A DNA stretch of 64,000 nt. Origin: Tubiluchus corallicola. Lineage: Eukaryota > Animalia > Priapulida. Positions 64 to 59,919 of the stretch are shown in pieces (positions within the stretch are counted from its first letter, which is position 1; each line of letters starts with the position of its first letter). The stretch spans positions 1-64,000 of the forward strand of contig JAQGDQ010000538.1 of assembly GCA_030141605.1 (NCBI GenBank), in the 5' to 3' direction. A program made the position numbers and the translations under genes. The notes under the pieces were generated by a model that had not been told where the DNA came from, did no database searches, and was given only the letters and a program-made list of their open reading frames with translations.

Positions 64-1010
64 GTCCATGAGTTACAACTACTTTTAAGGATATTATGGA
101 TATTGATAATTTTTGCTTATGAGACAAGCGCACTGGCATAAACGTTTAGTGCCCATACCAAAAGTATTTAGGCCCTACCACTTAACTGACAACATTATTA
201 ACAGCATTAATTATAGTGAAACGCAAAATTATTCTGTGGACGACAGCTACATCGAGTAGACGTATCACGTTTGTTCACTTAATTGAGTTTGCTGCCCCTT
301 AGACACTATACGCCTCATTATTTAAAGGTCTTGGTTGAAGTATATATAAAAAAATTTCAACTTGCAGAAGTATTTGTCAATGCACATGCCGCGCTTATCG
401 CTCTTATGCTTTGCACCCACAATAAAGTCTCGCGTGTCACCTACAACATCATTATTTAAATTCATTCTGTGATAGCTGAAATACATGTTGAAGTTGATGT
501 AGCGATGTTCACTTCAGACTGATTCTAAAACACAATGGTGTTTTCACTAAACACTGCTATTAATTACACTAAAGTTGTACAAAGCATAAACTTTACATAA
601 TGAGAAATAGAAAAACAGCGTGTAGAAATCAGAACATAAATCACAATCTGATTTTAGTTAAAAATAAAGAATGAGCTAAAACAATTATTTCATAGACTCG
701 GTCTAATCGATTTGGTATTAATTTATGATGTGCTATTTTTTTGAAGTCTTGAACAATAAACTTCTAAAAAGGTCTATAACGACACACTAGAATTTTGGGG
801 TGCGCAGTGCGCATGGTTTGTGTAAATGTTGAAAAAAACAACTCGCTAAATAGTGATATTTTTTGAAGTATCCAGCAATTGTAATACATACAAAAATCAC
901 GCTATTTTTTATTGCGTCTAGGAGTTGGAGGTGACCAGAATATTTTGCCTGGTCCTTGAGCAGTGCGCCTAGCTACAGGTTTTAAACTAACGAAGAAAAA
1001 GAACAACAAA

Positions 1011-4359: not shown

Positions 4360-34964
<30,605 letters not shown>

Positions 34965-38025: not shown

Positions 38026-38073
38026 CCGTCTCTAGATGGCAATAAAACATCCGGTGCATTTTGCAAGATGGCG
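38026..38073 (+). promoter_or_regulatory. Putative EPT1 promoter: ETS site and YY1 motif overlapping the start codon
   Basis: CTAGATGGC (38032-38040), ACATCCGGT (38047-38055, reverse ETS ACCGGATGT), CAAGATGGCG (38064-38073, contains the ATG). Confidence 0.55.
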
Positions 38074-41000
38074 ATCAAATATTTAAATACTCTTCAGCTA
38101 GAAGGATTTGATAGCTATAAAGTAAGTTGTTTACGTAAATTAAGCTGTACAAGTCGTTTAAATTCTGCCATATGGCTGTTTGATTGTTTCCCATAACATT
38201 CTGAGATAATTAGTTAAAATCTTAGGCTCTCACTCACTATATTGCAGTCACTTGTCAAGCTGCCAGTGCCAAGCCCATGACGGGTCATGAGTGATTTTTA
38301 GTGGCTCGTAGTGAACTGATCTTACTCTTTCCGAAGCTGAGTAACAATCACTCTAACTTTGATTGATTTGGTTTCTAACTTGATCTTAATTGTGACCTGC
38401 TTTTTATAAATAATCATGAAGCTGTACGTCGACATTCATCTAATACTAAGTAATAGCTTTTCTACACTATACTCTAGACTATGAGTATAGTATAGGATTT
38501 TATGATGATAATGATGAACTCGTGAAGCCATCTTATCCGAGGAGCAGTTTTTTGGTTGTAAAAAATGTGACCACAGTTTGCCAAAGTTGTCTAACAATAT
38601 TTTTGTTAATTACGTTTAAAGAAACGGATTATAAACTACTGTGACTTACCTTTTCATTTTGGTATGGACTTCAAATTCAAACCGATTTATCTTATATCAT
38701 AATCACGTTAAACTGTCAGTAACAAGCAGTTACGTAAAATGATTATGTGAATTTTGTGTAATAAAAAATAATTAAAATTACTTGAACTGATACTCAAGTT
38801 CATTGTTGACAACAAAGTCTCACATCTTCCTCAAGTTTTTCCCAATAATCTTATCTTAGTTTTACTTTGCAGTATAGCTGTGTTGACACCTCGCCACTGT
38901 CACAGTATGTGATGCATCCATTTTGGAACCAAGTGGTAAAGGTAAGCAGTTGTATGACAAGTTAATTTCTACAAAATTCTTTGGTGTGCTATTTTTAGCA
39001 TCTGAGGCTTATTACATCATTGCAATAGAGCAGATTGAAATCCATTTCAGATATAAATCACTCCAAAGTTGCACATTTCTAGCAATATATGGGTCCTTTG
39101 CTGCTTGTTCCTACTCATTATTTTTATGTCTTAACTGTTAAGTCAAATCAAAAATAAATATGTAAATTGTAATATGAACTCAAGTGCTCTATGTGTCCAT
39201 CATTTTCATTGCAACCTAGGTGAAGGCAGTTTTTCTAATATAGTTTCTCACTTCTTTAAGGAGTATTTTGTTCCGGTGCTCAGCAATTTTTGTCTTTAGT
39301 TCCTTTGCACCAAATAGCTCTGTGCAACTGTTGTATGTACCGTTGCCTCTCTTTAAAGAATCCAGAGTTCGTAGTCCAGACGTATTATAATGTCATACTG
39401 TGAAATTTCGACTTTGTAGGACACTGCTAATATTATTGTAATTTAAATTTCGGTACATTTTTCTGTGCCTCTCAATATAAATGTTATATTATATATTATA
39501 GGTACATATAATACTATGTATACTATATAAGTGGAATATTATATACATATAATATATCAGTCGTAACTGTACCAATATACTAATAGCGATATAGAAGAAA
39601 TTTAGTTTTTAAACCTAATTAAATATCATTTATTTTTCAGATATTACCACTATGGTTGGCTCCAAATGTTATGACTTTTACTGGGTTTATTTTACTAGTC
39701 ATCAATTTTCTATTGTTATCGTACTTCGATTATAGCTTCTATGCAAGTTCCGACGACAAACCTCAATTCCCGCCAGTGCCTCACTGGGTTTGGTTGTTTT
39801 GTGCTTTTAGCAACTTTATGGCTCATACATTAGGTGAGTGATTAAAAGCTTATTAGTAGTTATAGAATTGGACAGTTGGTACTAGGGATGTTCAGGATAG
39901 CGATATGTATCGATAATTATAGGCATAACTAGAGCAATGACACCAGAAAATTCTTCTAAGGCCAAGATATTAAAAAAATGAGAAATGATAAGCCTTTATC
40001 TCATTAGTGAATTAATTTGTTAAAAAATTGTTGATAATGTGCCAACGTTTTGAAAATCTGCTTGTACAAGGGGCGGTTGTTCCTCTATTAGCTACACCAC
40101 TGCAGCAATCACAGAAATGAACTAAAACATATAAGGCATCATTAGCAATAATGATGCATTGCCTTCAAAAATTTATTTGTTTAGTCTGAGCAGTTTTCTA
40201 AATTAAGAATTAAAGTCAGTAAAATTTAACACTTTCCCAAACTCCCATTCTAATTGTTTCCAAAAATGACTTTTTCTTGACTCCCAGTTCCAAGTCCACA
40301 GCTCTCAGTATGATTTAACCTTCTTACTAAAGTGACTAATCAGATCTATTGATATATCAGATCTGTTATTTGCATTTAAGCATTCTGTACAAATACATGT
40401 TTGCCTACAATCACACAACTTTCAGCTTGCGCTTTATGCTGCTGATTCAGAAAAATAAATCTAAAGGCCAGGAAATATTTTATTCTGGAGATTGTCAGAG
40501 GGCATATTACTTTTATTTAGTTGTTGTCTAAGACTAAGGCTAAGGCTATTTTTCATTGTTAGTTCTAGAAAGGAACATATTTGAGGGTTTCGAAGTTTCA
40601 GAAAAAAGATAGTCATATTTCTCATTGTGTAGCAAATGACTTTATTATAAATATTACTTATATAATGTGCTATATAAATAACTGCCTTTTTGAATGCTTT
40701 GTTTGAACCCAATATCAGTATTGTTTTAGAGAATTATTTGAGCTTGTGATTGCAGATGGCGCTGATGGAAAACAGGCCAGACGCACACAATCTAGTAGTG
40801 CACTAGGAGAACTTTTTGACCATGGACTAGACAGCTGGGCCACGTTCTTTCTACCAGTAGCCATGTATTCAGTATTTGGTAGACTCGATTATGGGATGAA
40901 TCCGTTAAGGTTAGTGTCGGCGTTTGTTCTTTAATGCACCACATACAGCTAATTTGTAATTATGTGTAGGAAAGTTTCCCTTTCTTAAATTGTTTTGTTA

Positions 41001-44000
41001 GCTTATCGCTTCAGAAAAAAATTTCAGTATATTTATTGTTTTTCTAAAATAACTAAACATTACAAAATCAACCTTTTCGTAAAAATCGTAAATTCTGTTT
41101 TCTACTTGCTCTGCATTTACTTTATGTCATTACTTGATTGTTAAAATGTTGTTTAACCAATTTTCACTAGTATGTGTCTAATTTCACTTTTGTTTAATCT
41201 TAGCGGTATGAAGATTTAATAAAAGCAAGTACAGATAAGACAAGACGTTATAATATATACAGTTTTACGAGACTTATTTTTATTAATTTTTCAAAACACC
41301 AAACTCCATACCTTCTATGGAATATGAGGTTGTTTTAAATACATTTAAAACAGTTTAGGATGCAAAGTGCACTGTAGTTGTTCAGTTAATATATGATACA
41401 TTATGAACATGGGGTCCAGTACTCCGAAACATCAATAAATATAATGTCTTGTAATTGTATATTAATGAAGATAATACTGCAAAAAATTCTAAAAAAATAG
41501 TGCCAATGTTTTTGTGTGACAAGAATTTATGCAACAAGTTCCTGTTCACTCAGAGGGCATCCTCATTTACTCAAATTTCTTACTTGTAAGCAACAAAATA
41601 CTTGTTGAACCATTTTAGGTAAATGATTTAAGTTAAAGGGGAAGAAAAGGCAATTATAAGGTTCTAATCATCTAATGTTTCAAAAAATTTCTATACAGTT
41701 ATATTATTTAGCATTATGCTTACCTGTTTGAAAGAGATGTTTAACTTGAAAAGAAAATTCTTAATAATTTAAAATGTTCATGACAACTAGTAAAACATCA
41801 CTGGCTCACTATCCTGGTGTGCCCCTAAAAACATTATCAGCTAACCAGAGGATATATTATTAATTTTATTAAAGTGATAAAGTAATTTATACTTTTGCTT
41901 AGACAATGAAGTGTACACTACAAGTGCTCTGAATATTTTTTTGAACTTTACACAGTTTTATCTAAATTTCTTACCCAGGAACTGTTGGTTAAAATAGCTA
42001 CTCCTAAGTGTCAGCACCTGAGTTAAAATTTCAAGTTTGAAACAGTATTGCTGCTAATACAAGCCTTGTATGTAGTAAGACAGCATGTACATGACACAAA
42101 GTTTCAAAAGGAAGAATTTAAGTTGTATGTAATAATTCTTTTTCCTTGTTTTTTTAATGCATGAGATATTTGTTTCCTGTTTTGACACTATAAAAACTAA
42201 CACCTTTAAGAAACTAGGAAAAAACTACAAAATATGTGCCAGATAAAGTTGTACATTTGTGGTAATTGGTGATTATCTTGTTTTAGGGTGTATTTTATCA
42301 TATGGGCAGTGCAGCTAACATTCATAGTTTCTCATTGGGAAAAATACCTAACAAAAGTACTTTTTCTTCCATGGGGCTATGATATTAGTCAAGTTGTAAG
42401 TATTTTTTGCTCTGTAAATGTATACATGATATATGTAATAAAATATGTTCTGGACAGTACATTTCGTTTGACAAATTTTTTATATTGTGTTTGCTAGACA
42501 GTTGTGCATATAATGTAGTATAAGTAATCATATGTGTATGTATAAGTAGTCAGTGATTTTGTGCACTTGGTTACAAAATATCTGCAAGCACGGTTAAAAA
42601 CTGGATGAGTGACCATTGAGAAAAAGATTTTGCAGCTGTTAGTTATAAAATATCTGCAAGCTCAAACATTCAGAAAAATATTTTTGGGTTGTTTCATTCG
42701 TCATGTTGTGTTTGGTTTTTTTTTATTTGAGGAAACATGTATACACATCTAGAAGTGGATAAGATACCTCTGCGGTTATGTGTCTAATCTTTGAGGATTA
42801 TTACTAATAATGAACAAAGTTTGCTGTTCTACTACACTATGGACATTACATTCGCAAAGCAGTACTGTTGGCTGTCTGTAAACTTTATAAAAAATGCTTT
42901 CCAGAAAGTTGAAAGAACGTGAGTTAGGGTCAGAAGTATTATCGCAAATGTTGCTAAGACATATTAATGGAAGACGAAATAGTTGAGTGGCTAGATGGAC
43001 GTACCATTTGTTTAACATAGTTTCAATTAAGTTAACAAGAATACATAATAACGCTGCAGTCCTGTCTTCAGTCCACTATTGACTTGCCACAATGTCACTT
43101 CACAGAAATGAGACCTGATATTTTTAACTACATTGACCGTCATCATTTTGATGTTTTTCATTTTTTAGGTGATGACTGGTGTCTACTTGATAACATTTAT
43201 AAAAGGATACTCTTTATGGAAAGTCAGTATTCATGTTGGCGCAGTAGAACTTACAATTCCATTAGTAGCTGAATGTGGAGTTTATGGTAAGTTGGCAGTT
43301 CAATTTTATCTCTGTTGTAGAAAATAGGAAAGAAATATTTTCTCAGTAAAGGCAAAAAGCATACCTGTCTTGAGTGTCAGATTCAGGCTACATGAAATCG
43401 GAAAATAATCGGAGATCAGAAGTTATTTGCTTGTTAAATAAGAAATTGCTTATCTGCCCTAAATGTAAAGCAGTTACATTAACTTTTTTCTAACGAACAC
43501 AAAGCTATAAGACTATGTTCACAGGCTAGGTGGCTGACAACAGCAAATTTCAAATGAGCTCAATATCCATGGTGGTGTTTCTTTTTTCTTTTCTTTTTGA
43601 AATAGCGGTTCATGTGTGGTGAATACTGTGACATTTTTAGTTCGTTTTTGGGTTGATGCCAGCAGATAGTTTACACTTAGGATATCCAATGATGTTTGAT
43701 CGCTTATAAATATTAACAGTTAGCAGTATTAGCACTAACTTGTTATTAATTACTACTTTCATCAGCATTGCATCAGTTATACAGTTTTTAAATGTATAAC
43801 ATAAGAACATGAAGCAAGTGGCTGTTTATTCGTTTGACGATGACGATATATATTATTCATTCATTAATATTAAATTTTATATGTAAATTCCTACATAAAT
43901 ATTTTCTAATAAATAAATTAATTAATCCGGTGTGCCATACGTTTGTCCTGTGAAATGAAATTATAAGTTGTAATGCAAATTTTTTTTGTATTTTTGTGTT

Positions 44001-47000
44001 TTGCAGTTTTCTCACTTGGTCTTAGTTTGGGCCAGAGTGCATGGAATATACGAAAGTAAGTTTATTATTAGTTACAATACGTGGACATTTGAGATTTTAA
44101 GACTTTGGGGCAACTATACTACAGTGAAAAGTAAATTTTCGGTTTTCGTTTTGGTTTTGTGTCACTTGCAGCTGACAGCAGTGGTCATCACATATTGGGC
44201 AAACACCTACCCCGTCTATACTTATGTACAAGTCGAATTTTCGGGTCAACTTACAATATGTATTTGGAGATGTTGCTAAAGAGTCGTCTACAATACGAAT
44301 ATGGGAAGAAATAATCCTGCATTATACCCTGGACTGAATGAACACTCATACTGTGATGCTTCACAAAATTAACAAATATTACTGTAATTTATTTTAATGT
44401 ATGTGAAATTAAGTTAAAATTTATATATTACTGGTAAATAAACTAGCGACGGAGCAGTCGATCAAAACATGAAAATCCCCAATGTTGTACAAGTGCTGCT
44501 GCCTGTCGGCTTCTGCAGGAAGTTTTACATTGGCCTTGTATATGCGTGTTTTGTTGACAAAATATCGATTACCAGCATACACGCGTATATAAAACACAGC
44601 TACGCAGAGGTATTGATTTTAGTAAATTGATTTATTACTCAGCCATTGTTGACATCATTTACTCTGGAAGATCTTAATATTTTATGGTCGACTTGTACAC
44701 AGCTAATATATAAAATGATGCAATTATTGGTCTTAAAATGCACATCGACTTGTACATAAGGTCGACTTGTAGACACATATATATGGTATTTTTCTATTGG
44801 ACAGACGCGTTTTCTTCGTCACTCGAATTGCACCTTGCAAAAAGTGCACATTTCAAGCTAGAAGCTGATGTAAATTATTTACTACACTCCTGTGCTTATC
44901 ATTTCACTGCTTATTAAAAGTAAAATCATTTGCTGTTTTATGTAAACTTTCTTGTGAAGTTATCTATAACCTAACATTTCCATATGAAAAATTTCGATCA
45001 AATTTAATGAACGAACAGTAAGAGCTTTTCAATGTAACTAAAATTGATTATTTTGTGGTGTTATTTTATCTCTAATTAAAGCAATTGCTGTACTTCATTA
45101 CTTGTACTCTTCTTCTAGGTCATATAGAGATAACACGGGCAAAATGCTTGGTGCATATGAGGCAATTGTTCCTCTTATTCCTGTAACTAGTTTGTTTATA
45201 ATTAGCGTTGTGTGGGCTTTTCTATCACCAAGCAACATCATAGACTCCGACCCGCGGATATTTTTCTTTTTAACAGGAACTGTTTTTTCTAATATTACGG
45301 TAAGTCAGTTACAGAATCTCAGTTGAAATTTTGATCAGTTTATGCCAGTGTAAAATGTATTTGGAATAAAGATTTTAACATGTATAAATTATATGTTCAC
45401 GTTTGATAATTAAATATCATGCGCTTTCTTGATTAATTGAAATTCTGCGAACAGGCCAAAAGCTTGTCATTCTGAAATTTTACGATTGGAGTTCATGCAT
45501 TATTGTGATATGATGATGTGAGTGAATGATATGAATTCTAGCAAGAGCCAAGGCACAGGCACAGTGTGAGTGATACGTTTCTATTTGTCTATGGTTTTTC
45601 TAGTGTTTTTAAGGGTGTGAATACATTTTGCTCAGACTGCTGAATTTAAAATTGTTTGTTTGACCTGATGCTCTTCTACAGCAGCTCAGTACAGATTCAA
45701 GATATCTTTGAAGCAAGTGCGATATCTTTAAGGAGAAATTAGCATATACAAGCCTTAATATTAGTTCACTATAGTTCATTTTGAGATAGTAAACACAGTT
45801 TTTTGCCTTTTTATTAAGGTGCTTTTGTGTAGCACTTGTTTTTTTTTGTATGTGAAATCAGTTTCTAAAAGCGTGATGTTTTAAAACGTTTTTAACTTTA
45901 ATAGGGGCTGCACTTGGCTTTTTGAAACTTTTACAATTTGGCTGCAACTTTTTGATATTTTTTGTGTATTATATTATAGATATATTATTAATAAAATACT
46001 ATTTTGTGTATGGTACAATAATATAGAAAACTTTCATATGGTCAAAAGAAAGCTAACCCATAACCTTGATAGATCAATTGTCTTGTTTAAGATTTACTGT
46101 GTAAAAAAGAGATTTTTTTAAATTATTACTGCATCCAGCAAAGATAAAATGATTTTTTTGCTTATTTAGTGTCGTCTAATAATAGCTCAGATGGCAAGCA
46201 CACGAGCAGAATTGTTCAACTGGTTGCTGATACCTCTAATCGGGTGCTTACTGGTGGTATTCTTTGTGCCAAGTTTAAGTCACTGGGAAAAACCCATACT
46301 CTATGCACTTATGGCATTTTGCACCCTGTGTCACATTCATTTTGGTGTAATTGTGGTAAGTGGTGCCAGCTTTAGCATAATGCATTGTGTTATAGAGATT
46401 TTTGTCTTCTCTGTGCTATAGCCTGCCCAATGTCAGCAGAAATGTTTATTTTGTTTTCATGTACAAATTGTTAAGCCTGCATCACCAGGTACTCTCACAA
46501 GTTTTGATCAGATTCTTAAAAAACTTCTTATGTAGCATGTTTTTTTAACTTTTTGCAATTTAATAAGAAGAATTGGGTAAAGAAATCCTATTTGAAGCGA
46601 GTTCAAACATTGTTGCATCTGAGATAGGTGCATCATTTTTTGGCTGCTAGCAGACTATCATCCAACACTCATGCAAAAAATGCAACTTTGTACTTAAGTT
46701 CAGTGTTGAAGGGTTTACATCTTCTGGGAAAATGAGAAACGGTAACAAAAAATCTTCATCTATCAAATTGTTTCTCCCCTTTAAAGCTTCTCCTAGATGT
46801 ATTACAGAAATTGTGATTCTCAATAGAGTTAGACATTTGCGTGTACAAGTTAGCTTGCATGTGATTAGCAATAGCAGCATATTTTAGTCATTGGAAGACA
46901 GTAACTTGAACTAGGTTTGGACATCATCATTTCTGACTCTTGGAAAAAGATTACGGTTATAAATATTATATCTAAGCAGTAATTTAGCAAAACTAAGAGA

Positions 47001-47486
47001 TGTAACCCTCAATATATTTTGTAATTTGAGGGTAAATTTTGTATATCGACTTAGTAAAAAGCTTTTTGACCTCAGTGGAGTAGGCCTATTTAGTTTTCGT
47101 GAGTATAAACAATGCCATGACAGGCACTATGTTTGTGCTTCTCATTCACGCAAGCAACAAACAGGCTTCTAATCTGAAAATTGTCTAGTTTCATGACTTT
47201 GTTTATGTCCATAAGAATTGTAAAATAGCAAACTGCACAGGTTATATTTTTATTTCCAAACTAAACCTAAATCCAGTTTCCAAAAACTAGTTAATCCTTT
47301 GCAATGAAACAGACTTTCAAATTTGCATTTGTCTTTTGACAACTACAACAAAGTGGATGCTGACAGTGTTTTGTAAACAGTTGCCAACCAGAGTTAATTT
47401 CATGTTTTTTTTTTCATTTCCAGGTAAGACAAATGGCTCAGCACTTAGGAATCAATGTATTCACACTTAAAAAAAAAGAAGATTGA
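38068..47486 (+). CDS. SELENOI: Ethanolaminephosphotransferase 1 / selenoprotein I orthologue (CDP-alcohol phosphotransferase), 10 coding exons; 391 aa to the TGA, 399 aa if TGA 47484-47486 is recoded (next stop TAA 47508-47510)
   Basis: Exons: 38068-38121, 38873-38941, 39641-39833, 40756-40909, 42287-42395, 43169-43286, 44007-44055, 45119-45299, 46170-46355, 47424-47486(47510). Motifs: [37 protein letters not shown], catalytic [49 protein letters not shown] (EPT1-type rather than CEPT1/CHPT1), [35 protein letters not shown]. Confidence 0.95.
44212..44786. mobile_element. Tc1/mariner-type (CCGT-ended, Tc2-like) MITE remnant
   Basis: CCGTCTATACTTATGTACAAGTCGA versus TCGACTTGTAGACACATATATATGG (19/25 inverted), TA on the right, three subterminal TCGACTTGTA repeats. 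Confidence 0.6.
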
Positions 47487-47630
47487 CAATTACTAGACAA
47501 TGCATGTTAATCTCAGGTGGGGAACAATGCGTTACCATGGAAACGCACTCATCTTGCTTTTGAGTAAACTGCGAAATGTTTGCCAGTTTCTGTGGTAACA
47601 TTTATTGCACCCAGTATTGCCATGAGAACA
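47484..47630 (+). promoter_or_regulatory. Candidate stop-codon recoding element: TGA-CAATTA plus downstream stem-loop
   Basis: TGA CAA TTA at 47484-47492; 14-bp helix 47531-47544 / 47586-47599 (two G-U pairs) with further inner and outer pairings. Confidence 0.6.
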
Positions 47631-50600
47631 AAATTCCTACAATGATCTATTCCAAATTTAAAAGTTATTTGATTTTTAGATTTTTCTTCGTTGGAATTAG
47701 ATTTTCAAAGTGATAAATTGGTACTATTGGGTGCAACGTCACTTCTGTCTATCAATGGGCAAAATGCCTTGTCTTTCACAACCTCAACCACGTTTAACTG
47801 TCAGCAAAATTTTTATTTGACTTTTATGGTTGTGTCAGGTCCAAAGTCCAGTTCTGCTCTTTTCTGTGCTTCTTACATGTCCAGAATAGATGTCAGTAAC
47901 GTTGCTTTGCTTTATGGTGCTAAATTTGCATTCTTTGATTGCAGAATTGTAATCATTTCATTCGCTCCTCATGTTTAATCGGGTTAAAAGGAAATCTGTG
48001 TGTTTAGTGCAATTGTGTGACAGTTTCTTAGCACTAAATGAAGATCTTGATGTAATGGTAAACAAAGACTAATAATGCTAACTTTCTGACATGCTGTTGC
48101 AGTCTTCATAACGGTAATAATGTTCCATAGTGTCATTATTTGCTTTGAATTATTGAATGTAATTATAACATGTGTTGTTTGATGCCATGTTAAAATGTTT
48201 CTTGTTTTTCAAATTTGGCTTTCGCAGTAGTAGTAAGTATGATAAGTGTTGTTTGCAACTTTTTACCACTTGTTGTTATCAGCTGTCTATCGATTTCTGT
48301 TTTCACTTTTTGCACTCTGACATCAGCATCCATTTGAACAAATATTGGCTAGTCATAAAGAAACCAAAGAACTTTTCTCAATATGTGAGTTTCGCACTCT
48401 TTACTATGATTTGTTATGAATTGTTGAGTGAGCTTATACATGTTTCTTATGTACTTCTTTCCATAAACTTGTTTTTTTTTTGGAAATTTGTTTGCTTTCG
48501 TTGTGGTTAGTGTACGTATTACTTTTTGCTCTGTTGTATTACAGTGTTTGTTGTTTCTGGCATCTTTCAAATTGGTATCCAGCATCAGTGTTGTTCGTAC
48601 TTTTCTTCTTCCATTGATGGTTGAGTTTGTTTAGATTCTGATAGATAGTTGTGGTACATTGTTGTTCCTTGGGATAATCATGCATTGTCTGAGACCGTAC
48701 AGCATGTAGATAATTGTGTTTTGCATTGTTTCCAACAACAATGCCAATGTTGATTGATAAGCTACCCATAAAATATGTACAAGTTCTAGAAATGGAGAGG
48801 TTTAGCAATATTAGTAATGTGGGTGTAATTGATTGATAATGAGTGCAAAATACTAAACAGTAGTAGAAATTACATTATTTTATATGCTCTGACTTAGCTG
48901 TATTATTATGGTATTTCTCAACTTTGCCACAAGTTAAAAATATAATTTTTGGAAACAATAGCTAAGTTATACTGTATTCTTTGCCTGTAATCTAGACACT
49001 TTACATACTAAGATTTTAGCTGCACATTCAGATAATTATTGTGCAACAACGAACTCTTCAGCCGTTTAAATATTTACCTATTGCTACAGAGCTATAGAAA
49101 TTCTTCAATTTTGTTAAACTTATAAGGTCTTAAAATGGATATAAATTAGGAAAATTAGAAGAAAATTTTTGTGTATTTTTTGTGATGTTCTAAAATATGA
49201 TTACCCGCACTAACAAAGACTTATAAAGATTAACCATGTATATTGCAGCAACTATGAATTACTAATTATGTATCATGTACATTCCGCAGAAAACGGTATG
49301 CTTAATCATTTGATGTGCATTGCTTTGTTTTTGGAAATGTGCATGTTGATGCTCATGCTGTGAAATATTCTTACTTTAGTAAATGTTTTGTACAAACATT
49401 GTACATTACAATGTACTTAATTATGTGAATTAGGTTACTTACCTATGTGGTTAGGTGCTTGCTGAGTTGTGAAATTTGACTGTATCATTAGCGCAGAACA
49501 TAACGAAATGGTTTAATTTAAACAGACTGAAACAGTTTTATGTTAGATAGTCATTATTAATGCCATTATTTTATTTTGGGATGAATAAGAAAATATCAAA
49601 CAATATGGAGAATTGTTTCTGGAAATATGCTAGGCAAAATTGTCTCTAAATCAGTTTTGATGTAAGCCTTGAATGTAGTCTTGTAGAGCAGCTCTCATTT
49701 TGCATATTTCGTAATTTGCAGTTTAATTTGCGCAGACAAAATCTGATACTTGCACAAGAATGAATGAAAGGAAGTGATCCTTGTGACTTTATAAACCACC
49801 AAAGCGATTATTATCTGTGAGTCAGTTATAAGTGCTGATTGTAAAAATGTCGATCCTTTGATTATTCTATTTTTATTGATATAATAACTTGTTATTAGAG
49901 AGAATCTGATGTTCTTACAAGTATGAATGGAATGATGTGTTATTCACGAATATATGCTGTGTTCCCAAAGCAGTGTATTATCAGTTGTAAAAATGCCCAT
50001 TTATTGCATTTTGATTGATTTTATTCACATTTGTATTTTTTGTGTTGAAACAGTATTAGCCGTAATAATTGTCTTTGTAAACTTGCATTAATTTGTCCTT
50101 TCTGTTATGCATATGACTTAAGTTATAAAAATTTGTAATGTTTTTGTTTTGAAAGTCATAGATAATTGATTTACTTATCTTGGCGGTAGATATCTGGTGC
50201 TTTTAATTAACTACACATTAGTTTTTAAGATGTATAGTGTACTTCGCTGTTTTAGCATTACTCTAATCAAAATTTATTGCATTTGTTTACTTTTTGGTAG
50301 AATCTGTAAATTTTGGTTAAAAGTTTCAGAAAAATTTGTTGTATAGTGCTAGTTTTCAACATAAGCATACAAGAATCGGATAAAGACTTGTGTTTATAAT
50401 GTTGCTTATAAACACACACACGCACGCGCGCACCATACATATATGCTTGTAATAATAACACATAAAGTGACAATTCTATGTACATGTATAAGCATTATCT
50501 CCTACTTTGCATTTTGAATTTTACAAGTTTTGAAAATAATCTTATACACGAAAAGCTAAGTTAAGAACCTTGCAGTGCTGTGCACAACAGCTGTTGTTAA

Positions 50601-51945
50601 AGTACAATCAACTGTGCTGTGAAATACAGTTATATTTATTTGAATGCAATAATAATTGTTACATTATCAATTAGTAAGCCTCTGAATCAACATTTGATAA
50701 TTCCACGATCGTAGCAGTAACAAACTTCTTCATACTACGCATAAATTTTTAATATTTGTGAACCGTTAAATAAAACTTTGTTGCCTCGCATATCATAAAT
50801 TGTTCTTGGCTAAGTAAGATGATGTAGTTAAGCAAAATGAACTCAGTTCATTAACCTAATAGACAACTTCACATTGTAATATTTTTGATCATGCTTTATG
50901 AACTGCATTGATAGTCTGGTGTGATTTTATAGCTTATTAGAGAGTCATGCTAATTTGAATGTTTTGACTGTGATTTGCAATCAGAATTCATGTTCGATTT
51001 TATTATTTAGCAGTAGTGAGATAACATTGCACACTGCACATGTCAGCAAATTGCTGTACCCGATCTTGTGGGGTACACATTTTCATACCGTGTAACAGCT
51101 TGTCTGTCAGATACTCTGTTGTTCTTTAAATTGGCACTTTAGATCATTGTCTGTGTTCGGAATGTGATCTTGCTTTCGTAGAAGCTGTAGATGAGGGACT
51201 ATATATCGTATGTTTTATATGTACTTCTCCCAAAAGTTTACTGATGAGTTTGCATTTTCAATAAGGCTCGAGTTTTGTATAATATTATGTTGTGTTGCAC
51301 TATGCTGTGCTATGTCATGATGTCATGCCATGTTGTTTGTTATGCTAGTTTATGTGATGCAGAATATGCTGTGTGGACTGCCAAGTTTCTTAACAGTGTG
51401 GTGCATACCACTCATGCTTCTTAGCTGATTGGAGTTGGTTTGTAATTTGATAGCAATCAAAAAAACACTAGCATATCTTTTAGGCAAGCTGCTCTAATAC
51501 ATCTTTTCGTTTCATATCATGATGATAATGCAGCAAATGTAGCAGGCTTTAGTTGAGTTAACTTTTGCAATATTTGGGAAGTTTTGTAGTGATTGTGAAA
51601 ATAAAACATGTTGCACTTTTCTGTCACACTTAATGAGCATTGTTAATTTACCATTATTGTCTTGCTTTTATAATTGTTCTAGTGATTTATGGTTATTTGC
51701 ATGTAATTACGATTGTAGTGACAGTAGAAAATGTTGTGTAGTCAATTAATAATAATATGTACATAATTTACTGTTTCAAAATGATGTGTAATGTGTACAT
51801 GTAATCAGTAGCTCTGTACATAATGTTTTGTAGAAATTTTAAGCATTGCTATATGTGTTTCACTGTGGACATCGTAAAACAAGCAAGTGCTTGTGTATAA
51901 TTTAAAAACATTTCATATGCAGATGTACTTAATAATAAATTAAAT

Positions 51946-51967
51946 TATATATATATATATATATATA
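51946..51967. repeat. (TA)n microsatellite near the EPT1/DEPTOR convergence, flanked by AATAAA motifs
   Basis: tatatatatatatatatatata with AATAAA at about 51934 and 51976. Another candidate EPT1 polyA signal lies at about 51600. Confidence 0.75.
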
Positions 51968-53479
51968 ATAAGGAAATAAATAATTTTTTATACTAAAAGT
52001 GTGTTTGTTTAGCTGTTTCATATTAGAGTTGGTTAAAAAAGGTTCTTGTCTAGTTCCCAATCTTTCACAATACAGTATAAAACTGAACATTTCAAAATCA
52101 TTCGTGTTTGATATCATACGAGTGTTTTTAACTGTGTGATTGTGGTCAACTTGTAATATTCCCCGGAGTACAAAAAAATGAGTAACTAAAATGTTTAGTC
52201 ATTACTGTTATCTTTATAATCTATTTGTAGAAAAACTAGAACAACTACCCTGTTCACAACCCACATTTTGACCTGTCATTTAAATAAAATCTGAGAGGAC
52301 TTTGATCATAAAACATTGTAATATCTATAAATTATTTAGAATCTAATACCTATATAACTAATTTCCTATAAAAATGGTATAGCATTAATGGCAATGTATC
52401 AGTTCAGTACAGAAAGACCTATTATGCCATGGCTTTACCATCACTAGTAGACAAACTAAAGTCGCAGTCGTGTCACCATTGCCAAGTAACTGCACATTTG
52501 AAAACCTGCAAATTATTTAATATTAAAACATCTGTGGCTTGTCTAGCAACTGGCACCTAAACAATAACATCCTGTAGGCTTTTTGTTATTTTTACCAAAT
52601 CCTGCTAACTTGGCTTTGCATTGAACCCATGCACTCTATCAGTGAATTTAATAAAGCTCTAGTTTCAGGCAACAGATGATGCCACATCCATGCAAACAAA
52701 ATTAATAATTTCAAAAATTCAATAATTGTACATTATTTACTTGTCACACAATTGGTCACTCATATATCTAAAAGTAGTTAAACTGAGAGTGCATTGCACA
52801 AAGGCTTCTGAATGTAATTTCCATAGAAGATTTACAAAAAGGATAATTCTCATGTTGAATATATACACACACTATTTACACACATAAAAAACTAATTTGC
52901 TGCAGGTCTCTTTAACAGCAGTTCAAATTTAAGTTGTCAAACCGAACCACTACCAAAACGCTTACATCTTACAGGACATTCCCAAGTTTATGACTTCCAT
53001 GATCAATTCTGTTAAATATACAACTCCATCTAGTGGATCAATAATTATTATTAATTAATAAATCAATATTGCACTTTTAAGTGAGCTTTTTTATGTAAAT
53101 CAACCCTGATTATACATACAGAATAACACAATTTGTTACTTACTTCTTTTGCTGATGTAGTAAATACGAAACAAACTTGACAAAATTTGTTACAAAATAA
53201 ATTTATCAAACAAAATCTTCAATTGGTGTTTACCAAAATTCATTATCGACGTAACATCAAAGCTCCAGGCCCAAAGCTTTCCTCAACAAATCATGCCAAA
53301 ACATCTGCTGTACTTAACAAAGGTCTAGTGTAGCCGCTCATCCCTGTATAACACAAAAATGCACCATAACGCGTGGCAAATTTTCATGTCCACCCTACTG
53401 CACACTTTCAGGGCTAAGTGTATGGCCTGTCATTTTTAACAGTTCAATGTCAAACACAGTCTACTAAACTCACTAATGA

Positions 53480-56400
53480 TCAACTGATAACATTGACAAC
53501 AGTCTTGTTTTTGCAATATACCATAATGGTTAAATTCACAATGCCCATTGGACTGTTGATAATCCGCTTAGCCACCACTTGGTGAGGCTGACGAAGCACA
53601 TTCTCTCCATTCACTTCACACAGGTATTGTCGAATCTGTAAGTAAATAGAATTTAATATCAAAGAAGTTACCAAAGATCTGCAAATATTATGCACACATT
53701 CATCAATAACCTAACACTTTGATTAATCTTTACAGTGTATTATAGAGTGGTAATTTTTTCAAAATTAATGACAATTTTTTCTGAATTTAGTAAAGTAGGA
53801 ATCAGAAAAAACAATCCTTGAATAAACTGTCTAAGCAATTTTACTTTTCCATTAAAAAATCGGGCAAACAATACCACAAAACAACTCAAATGTCAACATA
53901 CCCTGAGACCAGCTTCATAAGCTGGACCTTTAGGATCAACAGTCTGGACAAACGTTGGACCGTTTCCGCGGACTACGAATCCATATCCGACGGAATCACT
54001 GACAACCCGCAAACTCTTTTTTACATACGGTGAATTTGGATTTTCCAGTTCTTTAGCGCTTACTTGTCTAACAACTACAACAGTAGAATATTAATGCAAC
54101 ATTATTATTATTATTATTATTACTATTACTAGATTTATGAACTAGTAAGAAAATTGGAAATAAACTAACTTAGGCTAAAGGATAATGATTGAATCCAAAC
54201 AAATGTCCTTGCGATTTTTATAATTAACAAGTTGCAACCATGAATAACGAATTATTATTAAGTTTATAAATTATTATTAGACCAACAGTGATTAATTATT
54301 AATAATGGGTTATTATTATTTTGCTAAAAGCGTACCAGAATGAGGTAAAACTGCCACCCTATCTGGCTTATTAGACAGAGAAGAACGCTGATGTTCTACG
54401 TCATCAGCATCCTCTCCACTGTCAATGGTTTCGTTGTCATCACTATCATAGGAGCCATTACGGTTATAGTCACCCGACTCGTCAAATGACATACATCTTG
54501 ACTTGTCTAAAAAATGAAATATTCATTAATTTCAAAATAAATTTTATTACTTCAATAAATTAAATTGCAAACTTAAAAAACAAATATCGTAAAACTAAAT
54601 CGAAAGTATTAATGGACGATTAATGATACATTATTACAGAGATCTAATGCTATCAATTCTCCAGGTATATTTATGGAGTTATTGATACAATATGCAATTT
54701 TCTCAACAACAATTGAATGATTTGTGGCAAATTGCATGTCATACGAATCATCAGTCTCCGGTGGTCCCATGAGGTGTTTATTTTTTAATTCGAGACGTCC
54801 AGGAGGCCTTTAAAAATGGGCGTTTTTCACAAACTTATAAAATTGAGGTCCGAAAAGAACAGGTCCTGTGAAAGACAGGATGCTATATATCATTGAAAAA
54901 AGCTTTCAACATAGGGTGTAATAGATATAATTTAGTTTCCTGGAAGATTCATGAGCTACCAACCTGTCACAGTAACTGTTTTCCGGGAACCATCATTCCA
55001 AATTGTTTCAAAAATGCGCAAATGGGATGAGATGGGTCTAAAGTGTAAATGTTTCTTTTAGATACACATTCACTTAAAGAAATGGGAGGAGGGTGTAATT
55101 CAGAATTCTTTTTCAATCTCCCTATAACTGCGTGTTTTTGAAACAGCAACTTGTCTTTCACGACTGTTCCACGACATGGTAGTATACTTTACTTTCATAG
55201 TATATTTTCATTTTAATTTTATTCTCCTTGTAATAGTGTTATTATTGTTGGATCACTTTTGTTAATTTAAATTATAGTTCTGATCACGGTAGAATTAAGT
55301 GCCAATTTTCATTCAAGATTTCTTTTGAATGAGAGTAATAAGTAACTCGTATATGTATACTTACGTATGATGCCTAGACCTATCTATACTCTTTACATAT
55401 ATCCCAAGTAATACACAGTCTTTATAAATTAACTACCTCACATTGCATAGAGTACTGCAGTAACAAGCCGGCTGGCATGCCAACTTGCAAAGCCAATTTT
55501 TTTCCGGGAAAAGTTTTCCTGTTAATTATTGTATACCTCCACCTCAATCACCTGCTTCACAACATTAACAAGTATTTCTGTTGCAAGTAAATTAAAAGCA
55601 ATGTAATTAGTTATAAGAATAAGCCTTTTTAAAGTTTCACTGTATACAAGCACAGTTGCTATACGTCAAAGGTTAAGTGAACCAAGCAATATGTCTTAAC
55701 TACAACTGTCATGTGGCAGGTGGGTAAAGCAAAGTCGTCTGCTGCATCAGTTCAATTGATTTACGTGGAGTTTACTTAATTATTCGTTAAGGACCTTGCT
55801 TGGGAACAAGAAAAAATGCTCGATAAGCTTCTAGCTAGCATTAAAACTGTTACTATTACAATAGCATGGGGTGCGAGTTGTTGTCAAGTGTACACAAATG
55901 CATTCTCTGGTTCTCTTAACCTCTGGCCTTTTTACAATCATCATCAATCACTGGAACTGTGAAAAAGCTTATTCTACTCTTCCGGATATATATATTAATA
56001 TTTTTACTTTTCCACTGTAACCTCTTAGATATAGCAGCCACTTGCCTTATTTCAGATGGGTTTCTTATTCATACTGTAAGAGCAGAATTAATACAATAAC
56101 CAGTCCATATTTACACCTCTGGAAAATTGATTGAGTGAAAGTCAGCTAAAGCATTACTAATATAATCACCTCCATGATACGGCATGTATGGAAAGTTACT
56201 AAGGGAAATCGCAGAGATCTTACGCGTGACGTCGACGCTGCGATCAGGAGACACAATAGATGAAATTCGTCGATCGGTCTTTCTGTCTGGACTATGATCT
56301 GAAAACCGATGAAATGAAATAACAACATCGTTAAAATCATTAGTGAGAATATGTGAAAAACTCTTGCCTTTGTCACTTTTAATTATACAATAATTAAATT

Positions 56401-58066
56401 AATCAAATGTAATAAATTAAATCACAGCTGCGACATTATTAATATTTTTTACTGTGAAATTTCGTATTTCGTGTATCATTGTGTATTTCATGGCTGTACA
56501 ACAAAAGCGGCATTAACTTATCCTGACACTGAAAATCCTATCTGCAAGAATCATTAGTAAACTAGTAGAGCTTCATCTAACTTCACTTCAAACAGTAGTT
56601 TAAACATTATTTGATAAAACAAAACATGGGCCGAAAACAATAAAGCTGATTAGTGAAACTCATTTGAAACAGCAAATATAATTTTGTAAATTATAACTTT
56701 TTGTAAATTATTATCCACTTCAGCACATTATAAAGTGCATGATTATCTTATAACTATTATACACTATAACTAGGAAAGAATCAAATATAGACTTGCAAAA
56801 ATTGTAACAAAACTGCATCAATACACTATTAATAGTATTATGTGCTATAGTTATTAGTTAGAGAAAAAATTTTAAATATAGTTAAAAAAATTTAAAATAT
56901 AGTTAAACTGCAAAACTTCTAGTTACAAATATCAGCATTTTATTTTGCATCGTGAACGTATATATATCACAGCCAAGGAAAATGCACAAAAGTGTACCGT
57001 ATGTGGTTACAGCTTACTTTTAATGAACACCATCTTATACTGTTATTAGCTTAGTGTAACGTTTTCTAAACTAAGTTAATTTAGCAAAACATTTGTATTT
57101 TTGCATATTCTACTAAAATTTAGCTCGGCATAGAGTTCAAGTTCAAACTGCATGTGTTATAAAAATAGTACAATATTAAATTGTGTCAAAATAGAGGCTA
57201 AAATGGTTGTAGAAAGAAAACAAGAAAACAAAATGTTCCATTTTTTGTTAAAACTTGCAAAGTACTGTACATACTAACCATCATCACTAGAACTGAACAG
57301 CAATCCACCTAGAGACATCTGTGAAATTTTACGAATCTTTGACGTGGTCGTTTCCGCGGCTGGCTTGTCACCAGACTCCATGTCTTGTAGTGAGAATCCG
57401 CCACGAACGGCGTATCTCCCCAGTATATCAGAGTATTTCACAGGTTTCTTAAAGTTAACCGAGAACTGATATAATAGTTCCTCATCTTTAAAATGCTTTT
57501 CATGAGCAACTGAAAGGTAAAACATTTTAACAATAATAAAAAATACAACAATTGCTAGCAGAACAAAAACTATATTATTACTTTTCTATACTATAAATTC
57601 TTACATGGCACTAATAGAAGAGAAAATGGAATAACAAAATAAAATGTAGTAATGTAATTTCTGTTTGTATTTTTCATTACAGGTTAGAAATTTTTCCTGT
57701 AATGGACAGCACAACAAAAAAAAAACAATTATTTTTTGAAAAACAACAATGAAATTTTATTTGTTAACTTGATCAGATTTCGAAATAAACTTTCATATGA
57801 ACTGCATATCTCACATTTCCGTGCATTTAATGAATTTAATTCTGTAACCCCACTATCTGTAGGGTTAAGTCACTACTGGCTACTTACCATGATGGATCAC
57901 ATTGTTGACCAACAATTCCCTGCAGTCTTTCAATGCCTGCTGTCGTGTCAAAGCCAAGTGTTCAGATAGGATCCAATCTAGTAACCCACGTCCGGTGAAG
58001 GAATAATCGTAGCTAAGACCGTCCTCTTGTCGTAGCTTCAATACTCTATTGGGCTCGGTGTGTAGC
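53480..58066 (-). CDS. DEPTOR: DEP domain-containing mTOR-interacting protein (DEPTOR) orthologue, 5'-partial: second DEP domain, Ser-rich linker, PDZ domain
   Basis: Minus-strand exons with consistent phases: 58066-57888, 57509-57279, 56298-56170, 54506-54336, 54074-53902, 53635-53480 (TGA). DEP: LHTEPNRVLKLRQEDGLSYDYSFTGRGLLDW…VIHHVAHEKHFKDEELLYQFSVNF. PDZ with DEPTOR-type lead-in: RQVSAKELENPNSPYVKKSLRVVSDSVGYGFVVRGNGPTFVQTVDPKGPAYEAGLRIRQYLCEVNGENVL. No exon for the first DEP domain was found in 58067-64000. Confidence 0.9.
54101..54130. repeat. (ATT)n microsatellite
   Basis: attattattattattattattactattact. Confidence 0.85.
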
Positions 58067-59919
58067 CTGAAAAAACGTATGTAGTTAGCATGTGTATGGT
58101 TATCAACCAGACGCACAGATGAAACAGGTTTTCGCCTGAAGGTACGGGGGATATAAACTGCTTTATGGCTCCTTCAAATGTAGAAAAAACAGCAATTAAA
58201 GTCAGAAACTAGAACAAGATTTGGCCGCGTGCCAAAAATGCTGAACGATGTTCGAAGAAATCATAACATGGGAAGAGCACTGCAATGTTAATAAAACAAA
58301 TGTGACGACCTTGACTTGGATGCGTTTGTGATACCAGTGAAGTAGTAAATTTCAAAACAAGAAAAAACATTAAACTTAACGCAGGCTAAATTTAGCAAAC
58401 ATTTAATTTTAATTCATATTATTTTGTGTAAATGAAAAAATACTATCATTAGCCTAGACTTAAGATAGATAAAATTAACATATTTTAATATTTTTGTTTA
58501 AAACTCACTTATTGTATAGCTTGAGACCTTTGAAAAAGACCCGCAAGTCATTGAAGTTGGCGAATGTTGCATCATCTTTTCGAAAGCGGTAGAAATTACA
58601 GTCGTCCAGAAACCTGATTTGGTCACATACTACAAAATTTACAAAACTGTAATAAAAATATTCATATCTTTATGAATACATAAGACTTTAGAAATACTTT
58701 TAACCTTTCAACTCAAGAAATTCCTTCAAATGAAAAAAAATAAATAGTTCCATTTCCACAACGCGCCAATTGGTAATTGCACAAAGACAAGTATGACAAA
58801 TATCACTGCCTGTCACTTATCTAAACCTTAAACGGGTCAAGTAGTGTTTCACTATCAAGCATAACAGCACACCGTCACTGTGCGCTAATAATAATAAGCC
58901 AACAAAAATGCAATGTAAAAAACTTGTTAACTCACATTCACACAAAGTCTGCACACTGGAAAATGTTCCACTAACCAAGCCTCAAGCCAAACATTGTTTA
59001 TCAGAGATACTTAACATAAGATTAAATTCAGCAAGTCTTCGAGGAAACGGGTTGGTCACAAATAAGCGAGATATTTGCTTCATATCAAACTTCACGTGTT
59101 AGCGAACGTCAGCATTATAAATTTTACTTCCACGCCCAAATCCGGCTCGGCGAAAAAAACGTACACTGCAAAATTTCAACTCGACTTTGACGAAAGCTAT
59201 TCATGTGACCAAGGTGACAGGTCAATTCACCTGCCAAGGTCAAACAGGTAAATTAAAGTCGGAATTTATATATCATGAACAACCTGTCTGCACGTAAAAA
59301 TACAGCACGCGATTGAACAGGTGAAGGTTTTCAGAAAGCAAACCTGAAAATAACACGTGTCAATTGACCTTAGCCCAACTGTGCTTTGCTTAGCAAAAAT
59401 TTGACGTCAAAATATGCGCTGACTTGGTAACTTGTTATCGCAAATAAACCAGACAAGAAATTTTTGTTTACAAGCGGCTATGTAACGTCTACACGAGTTC
59501 ATTGGAGGTACTTAATCTAATTAAAAAATTAACAGGAACAAAAAGTCAAGTTGTTATCAAAAGTGAGTGAATGAATGAGTAAATGACTGAATTAAGAAAT
59601 GAACGAACGAGCGAATGAACGATGAATTAAAATAACACGAACGTTACAAATTGCGAACAATGTTTAAACGTTTTTTCCAAGTTACATCAGGATCAATTAT
59701 ATAATCATAATTACAAATGTGCTTCATATGTAGGTTGTCTACACTTTATATTAATTTTTTAAACAAGCACAGCAAAATGTTTGAAAATCGGACACATTGG
59801 TGTAGATGAATGAAAAAACCTTTGGCATTCTTTTGGCCAGAAAATCTGAGAACTACTGTACTGGTGGGCTTCTCTATTTTCGCTACCTTCTTCAAAGCAC
59901 TTCTGCTAATGATCAACAC

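Follow-up and report, generated by a model that had tools for sequence, protein, structure and literature searches.

The window, by which we mean the whole analyzed stretch of 64,000 nt from the priapulid Tubiluchus corallicola (contig JAQGDQ010000538.1), contains on its forward strand a gene for ethanolaminephosphotransferase (EPT1), the orthologue of vertebrate SELENOI. The gene and the features at its 3′ end are the following:

38068–47486 (+): EPT1, 10 coding exons, 391 aa
38068–38121, 38873–38941, 39641–39833, 40756–40909, 42287–42395 (+): EPT1 exons 1–5
43169–43286, 44007–44055, 45119–45299, 46170–46355, 47424–47486 (+): EPT1 exons 6–10
47484–47486 (+): UGA stop following ...KKKED, predicted readthrough site
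47487–47492 (+): leaky context CAA-UUA (TMV-type hexamer), read from the sequence
47487–47510 (+): predicted extension QLLDNAC, 7 codons by translation, then UAA (47508–47510)
50769–50774 (+): first AAUAAA 3′ of the EPT1 stop

All nine introns of the gene are of the GT-AG type and the reading frame is open. Exon 4 gives a Pfam CDP-OH_P_transf match, and the protein carries the CDP-alcohol phosphotransferase motif and is placed in the EPT1 clade. Among 123 homologues the closest is the EPT1 of Priapulus caudatus (P0089, 72% identity; the next best shares 57%), to which the window protein is sister in a quick tree (SH-aLRT 99). The identification as EPT1 made in an earlier note on this DNA is thus well founded. 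The CEPT1/CHPT1 structures are much farther from P0089 (E 1e-25 to 1e-34); a solved structure of EPT1 itself was sought and none was found. The 3′ UTR apparently exceeds 3 kb, judging from the position of the first AAUAAA. Two further genes are recognizable in the window: a multi-exon kinase gene with a coiled coil at ~13650–34290 (+), read as a Rho-associated kinase from its ORFs and giving a Pkinase match, and a convergent gene at ~53900–58170 (-) with a DEP domain and, by eye, a PDZ-like exon.

The place at which the window protein ends is a common one, being shared exactly by 62 of the 118 homologues that could be anchored; 56 of these 62 end on D or E, and in 53 the positions -5/-4/-3 hold basic residues or His. 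The vertebrate records truncated at selenocysteine (Sec), namely those of the beaver (P0273, with P0167) and the blue tit (P0133), also end on D, one residue beyond the window stop when counted from a common anchor. As judged from these protein sequences, the window UGA aligns within one residue of the vertebrate SELENOI Sec site. No homologue with Cys at the first UGA is present among the proteins compared, and the EPT1 proteins of amphioxus, hemichordates, echinoderms, molluscs, and annelids mostly stop elsewhere. In human SELENOI, according to PMC8540796, Sec is residue 387 and dispensable for activity in vitro, the tail is predicted to be cytosolic, and the tagged protein was reported to be mainly in the Golgi. 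Two selenoproteome surveys describe the Sec position as being without a homologue outside vertebrates and the function of the SELENOI extension as unknown (PMC13134290, PMC3316567).

The elements downstream of the stop, with +1 taken as the U of the UGA, are the following:

47494–47529 (+): proximal arm of the predicted long-range stem; conserved core 47495–47506 from +12, overlapping extension codons
47531–47599 (+): core of the hairpin (14-bp helix and the helices inward of it), one base inside the end of the long-range stem
47600–47627 (+): outer pairs of the earlier note, 3′ strand; folding of the whole UTR predicts their displacement
48166–48181 (+): weaker, G-U-rich alternative partner of the proximal arm
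48657–48691 (+): distal arm, with 12 Watson–Crick pairs at 48679–48690

The earlier note had described the hairpin as an extended stem-loop that might stimulate readthrough of the EPT1 stop. All of the motifs that it quoted are present at their coordinates, and 47531–47544 pairs with 47586–47599 over 14 contiguous positions, which include two G-U and five G-C pairs. The local fold of 47480–47640 has an energy of -43.6 kcal/mol (z -2.94; 0 of 200 shuffles equally stable), and tighter windows give z values of -3.6 to -5.6 on the + strand and -2.5 to -3.7 on the - strand. For the 14-bp hairpin the corresponding values are -26.5 kcal/mol and z -5.6 on + versus -19.8 kcal/mol and z -3.7 on - (200 shuffles each). 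Because z is more extreme on + than on -, a structure of the + strand RNA is favored, as had been suggested. The + strand of the window has 14 ungapped helices of at least 14 bp in all, and this one contains the most G-C pairs. When ~710 non-overlapping 90-nt stretches of the window are compared, the hairpin ranks second by raw energy and eighth by composition-adjusted energy, that is, within the top ~1%. The hairpin is therefore real and uncommon in the window, yet not unique.

A 100-nt hairpin of comparable strength in the last EPT1 intron (47075–47175, +; -29.7 kcal/mol, seventh by composition-adjusted energy) illustrates how often folds of this kind arise as background. The strongest composition-adjusted fold on the + strand belongs to a palindromic, TTCGAA-rich intron repeat at 24195–24300, which is probably a satellite or small mobile element. 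A second, A-U-rich hairpin, which starts with AUGA and has a geometry that is not SECIS-like, follows directly at 47644–47707 (+). A transposon-type repeat was considered as the source of the hairpin at 47531–47599 and ruled out, since the hairpin is single copy in the window. A search of its locus against Rfam gives no match and no miRNA; in particular there is no Rfam SECIS match, in accordance with the statement of the earlier note that it is not a SECIS.

The pairs proposed around the 14-bp helix fare differently on its two sides. The inward ones (GCA/UGC and CAU-C-UUGC/GCGA-A-AUG) and the outward ones are both present in the local minimum free energy fold, but the latter are lost in the context of the UTR: the outer and basal regions CAAU/AUUG, GGUG/CACC, UCUCA/UGAGA, and CAAUGC/GUAUUG pair only when the region is folded alone. 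When the UTR to 48.7 kb is included, the two outer sets measured fall to a probability of 0.00, while the 14-bp core stays at 1.00 and bases 47494–47529 pair instead with 48657–48691. The distal arm is thus predicted to displace the proposed outer pairs and to leave the core untouched.

The distal arm emerges also from a search of +7..+40 against the downstream UTR. The best partner lies ~1.18 kb downstream and has an energy of -30.7 kcal/mol, to be compared with -22.5 ± 2.0 kcal/mol for 200 shuffled UTRs (p 0.005). Bases 47495–47506 form 12 Watson–Crick pairs with 48679–48690, and the extended duplex 47494–47529/48657–48691 reaches -40.6 kcal/mol. The UGA itself is not part of this conserved helix. 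A global fold over 1.26 kb, and one over 2.08 kb in which the arms are away from the ends, recover both the stem and the hairpin core, although folding predictions across 1.2 kb are unreliable. It should be mentioned that an initial strict 12-pair selection had pointed to 48166–48181 as the distal arm; this was rejected, its energy being -17.9 kcal/mol versus -40.6 kcal/mol for the arm at 48679 and its ensemble probability 0.00. Since the first AAUAAA occurs only at 50769, the distal arm plausibly lies inside the 3′ UTR.

A contig from run X6 (~90% identical to the window) has 20 differences in 48514–48617 (104 nt) and none listed in 48618–48713 (96 nt), which contains the distal arm. In the worst case of two unlisted contig-end differences falling in the arm stretch, the Fisher p is 7e-5; that X6 is RNA is a guess, and the stop and the distal arm are not joined by any contig. 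In run X5, three other UTR stretches (47747–47938, 48050–48389, and 48736–48891) are kept at ~85–90% identity. At a likeness of 80%, the hairpin is covered by none of the runs X3–X6, a result without diagnostic value. Runs X5 and X6 are labelled as the same species as X1 yet diverge by 10–15%, so the label or the species limits are perhaps loose.

Loci with the same arrangement were found in a metagenome scan with a C-terminal alignment of 12 proteins, which confirmed 145 stretches, the best 80 of which were taken. Nine of these best 80 of 145 EPT1 loci share the UGA, its context, and a matching extension; six came from a walk to the stop, and a motif search added three that contain introns. 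By their positions in the tree they are the following:

L001, L002: cladoceran-like
L003, L004, L044, L046, L049, L050: collembolan-like
L028: other crustacean-like branch

All nine read D-UGA-CU[AG]-UUA-GCC-GAC and encode extensions of 6–7 codons (LLADSTC, LLADSAC, LLADSA, LLADNA, or LLADDA). Together with the window they make ten loci, which represent four lineages and not ten independent events. In all ten the UGA is followed by C, and in all ten an in-frame extension of 6–7 codons leads to a second stop, the codon signal being limited by the overlap with the stem. In the other 71 of the best 80 loci, which include copepod-like, mite-like, and annelid-like sequences and one hemipteran-like sequence, the leaky motif is absent as far as the stop could be located; many of these are genomic or cut loci whose true stop is unlocated. 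A motif match in L053 was dropped, as it is far from the end of EPT1, and a scan of a viral collection for the arthropod stop context gave 0 matches.

Some further observations on these loci can be noted. At codon 7 after the stop, L003, L004, L028, L044, L046, L049, and L050 have a second stop UGA where L001, L002, and the window have a Cys codon (UGC/UGU); the first two bases of this second UGA pair in the stem. In L001, L002, L004, L049, and L050 a UCA 8–15 nt past the distal core, absent in the window, could pair with the UGA of the EPT1 stop itself. L049 has at 789–939 (-) a weak match to a SNORD15-like C/D snoRNA (E 0.0006, under the gathering score).

The stem arms lie 171–1,172 nt apart over the ten loci and 171–1,111 nt apart in the arthropod ones. 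At +13..+24, 118 of 120 cells pair, against 23–57 when the arms are slid by 1–3 positions; the former count is inflated, because the arms were chosen by complementarity. Relative to the window, both sides have changed at +16, +17, +18, +19, and +21, and further two-sided changes occur at +12 and +24, as counted over four lineages only. Arms swapped in from other lineages still form 9.7 of 12 pairs on average. Three lines of evidence are free of the bias of arm selection, one being the X6 differences given above. In the second, the best duplex of the fixed 14-mer +12..+25 was compared between real and shuffled UTRs (100 and 60 shuffles), with 32 controls taken from the other 71 loci (stop located, ~250 nt or more downstream, near-duplicates excluded). 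A p value of at most 0.05 was obtained for 9 of the 10 loci versus 3 of the 32 control EPT1 loci; L028 does not reach this level (p 0.089), and L003 reaches it only just (p 0.0495), with 11 of 12 pairs and a partner that is repeat-like. The third is provided by the flanks of the distal arm, which were not used in picking it: GCCUC recurs in four of the six collembolan-like loci and CCUCGG in both cladoceran-like ones. Since the stem overlaps the extension codons, the conservation of the peptide may be imposed by the RNA stem rather than by protein function.

The hairpin at 47531–47599 behaves otherwise. It has no positional counterpart in any of the nine arthropod loci that share the leaky stop, where +42..+125 folds with z from -1.85 to +1.25 versus -4.06 in the window, and no match to its sequence was found in the best 80 of 145 EPT1 loci. 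L028 does have a strong hairpin at +61..+145, but an unrelated one; the hairpin of L044, at +25..+110, is of moderate strength. Folds of 150–220 nt in six arthropod loci revealed no shared local hairpin. Lacking such a counterpart, the hairpin is not the shared stimulator. Of the proposal in the earlier note, readthrough aided by a 3′ RNA structure stands as the best reading; this hairpin as the stimulating structure is not supported, since it starts at +48, lacks a positional counterpart in the nine arthropod loci, and is outcompeted at its base. The caveat attached to that proposal, that the hairpin is farther from the stop than typical stimulators, was appropriate, and the conserved helix at the textbook position of +12 is another, long-range one. 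We take it as likely that the hairpin is an inner helix specific to its lineage, placed within the loop that the long-range stem closes. It may stack on that stem and shorten its loop, and it is probably accessory to readthrough, not required.

A stronger version of this role would have readthrough in priapulids depend on the local hairpin, as a stimulator or co-stimulator in its own right, e.g., through coaxial stacking on the long-range stem. The hairpin is strong and strand-biased, only about 1% of the stretches fold as well, and a single unpaired base separates it from the extended stem; L004 and L044 likewise fold a helix beside the proximal arm. Its start at +48 and the missing counterpart in all nine arthropod loci, whether in position or in sequence, speak against such a requirement, as does the dispensability of the loop in alphaviruses (PMC3159437), and we regard it as unlikely.

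The long-range stem, in contrast, resembles known elements. Extended 3′ stems stimulate UGA readthrough in alphavirus nsP3/4 (VEEV, SINV) and in kelch and headcase of Drosophila (PMC3159437; Firth et al. 2011). Such stimulators have a 10–14 bp stem, an 8–12 nt spacer, and a long loop, and those of alphaviruses, coltiviruses, and MoMLV start at +12 (PMC13517186; PMC3159437). The EPT1 stem starts at +12/+13, i.e., 8 bases after the UGA, and falls within these limits, whereas the reported hairpin alone lies outside the 8–12 nt spacing. The four sequence-level features of the type described by Firth et al. (UGA-C, stem spacing, compensatory changes, and extension) are all found at EPT1. The likeness to alphavirus, kelch, and headcase thus comprises UGA-C, a spacer of 8–9 nt, a stem of 11–14 bp with compensatory changes, and a long variable loop that possibly holds its own helices (PMC3159437). 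There are also differences: the loop is 171–1,172 nt in EPT1 versus 52–268 nt in those systems, the distal arm lies in the 3′ UTR rather than in the extension ORF (PMC3159437), the extension has only 6–7 codons, and the cassette is common to a priapulid and arthropods.

Readthrough elements of long range are described for barley yellow dwarf luteovirus (about 700–750 nt; PMC3159437) and for carnation Italian ringspot virus (more than 3.5 kb; PMC13517186). As in EPT1, a proximal element pairs with a far distal one in these plant viruses, but EPT1 is a cellular mRNA with a UGA stop and a single simple helix. The window has the TMV-type context UGA-CAA-UUA, and the arthropod loci have UGA-CUA-UUA, of the UGA-CUA type; both types of context are given as leaky in PMC13517186. 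TMV is listed there without a downstream structure, while EPT1 has context and stem together.

On the basis of these sequence comparisons, we consider it probable that the EPT1 stop is read through by a near-cognate tRNA with the aid of CAA-UUA and the long-range stem, the hairpin being a lineage-specific inner helix. Since the stem starts where viral stimulators do, it would likely meet the mRNA entry channel of the ribosome while the UGA is in the A site. Stem and leaky hexamer would then slow termination, as in alphaviruses and kelch, and let a near-cognate tRNA compete with eRF1, and a minority of the EPT1 made would be longer by 8 residues. The sequences themselves show the gene structure, the stop context, the matching extensions, and the complementarity with its two-sided changes; the formation of the stem in cells, its contact with the ribosome, and the minority extended product are what we infer.

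The normal end of the protein, KKKED, fits the dilysine rule (KKxx/KxKxx) and could act as an ER-retrieval signal, which the extension would mask; the longer form of EPT1 could then reach the Golgi. From the fit to the rule, the frequency of basic tails among the homologues, and the Golgi report for SELENOI, the masking of ER retrieval is the role that we prefer to propose for the extension. No report of readthrough in invertebrate EPT1 or of this stem was found in the literature searched; supplements, theses, or subscription papers may hold one. The fly EPT1 gene presumably goes by the name CG33116. This name is absent from the searched parts of PMC5100048 (text and supplement), PMC3840789 (two supplement files), and PMC13278127 (text and one supplement file).

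The position of the UGA at the vertebrate Sec387 site raises another reading, in which it is decoded as selenocysteine, the stem is a Sec-redefinition element (SRE) working with a non-canonical or distant SECIS, and EPT1 is an overlooked invertebrate selenoprotein. The likeness to SELENOI comprises an orthologous enzyme, a UGA (recoded in SELENOI and predicted to be so here) that follows the equivalent D in the corresponding place, and a short C-terminal extension (PMC3316567, PMC13134290, and PMC8540796). SREs, such as those of SELENON and SELENOT, occur downstream of Sec codons with a helix a few bases 3′ of the recoded UGA; however, they are short local hairpins working with a SECIS, whereas the EPT1 stem is long-range (PMC8704476). 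Vertebrate SELENOI depends on a SECIS, and none was found for the window EPT1: Rfam at E up to 10 gives no SECIS in 47400–53000, a pattern scan of the same range gives 9 loose matches, at a background-like rate and with none convincing by eye, and no RUGA...GA quartet with an apical AA was found in the 3′ UTR, all these searches being without a positive control. Nor was a SECIS found in the nine arthropod loci by Rfam or pattern scan, where some contigs may end early and a positive control was likewise absent. In the seven loci the second UGA does stand where L001, L002, and the window have Cys codons, but past this UGA no conservation is seen, and pairing in the stem dictates its first two bases. 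As the leaky hexamer contexts are enough for plain readthrough, we hold decoding as selenocysteine to be quite improbable.

The stem could also be real and serve mRNA stability, localization, escape from NMD on a long UTR, or ADAR editing, the stop not being usefully read through. It could by itself account for the conserved codons at +13..+23 without translation, and the UTR is indeed long. Such roles do not account for the fact that UGA-C is invariant, that UUA occupies +7..+9, that the start at +12 is fixed, and that ten of ten loci have an in-frame second stop at codon 7–8. Against editing in particular, the conserved stem does not include the UGA, and an A preceded on its 5′ side by G makes a poor ADAR site. 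We give these roles little credence. We regard it as very improbable that the hairpin represents a pre-miRNA, or an inverted repeat in decay, unlinked to the stop. Its dimensions (84 nt, ~31 pairs, MFEI 0.85 when folded alone) and the hairpins of like strength in introns of the window would agree with such an origin; against it stand the absence of an Rfam miRNA match, its single copy, the several internal loops near its apex, and the displacement of its lower stem in the UTR context. A neutral origin of the hairpin is in any case compatible with stem-assisted readthrough.

Readthrough assisted by the long-range stem would be a cellular case of a kilobase-range RNA stem at the position of viral readthrough stimulators, present in a priapulid and in arthropods, groups whose split is of Cambrian age. 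Elements of this range would be missed by local folding and by short reporters; here, a key part of the cassette lies 1.2 kb outside the coordinates of the reported hairpin. A recoded UGA at the SELENOI site in invertebrates would also offer an origin and a candidate function, i.e., the choice between ER and Golgi location, for the vertebrate extension. It is conceivable, although we put this forward tentatively and from sequence comparison, that the EPT1 UGA was a structure-driven readthrough site in the bilaterian ancestor, switching off an ER-retrieval signal, and that vertebrates later captured it via a SECIS. As most of the amphioxus, hemichordate, echinoderm, mollusc, and annelid stops differ, a single origin needs several losses, or else the likeness is convergent. 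If the proposal is true, SELENOI would have become a selenoprotein by way of a leaky stop codon, and such an origin would explain a Sec residue that has neither a cysteine homologue nor a catalytic role.
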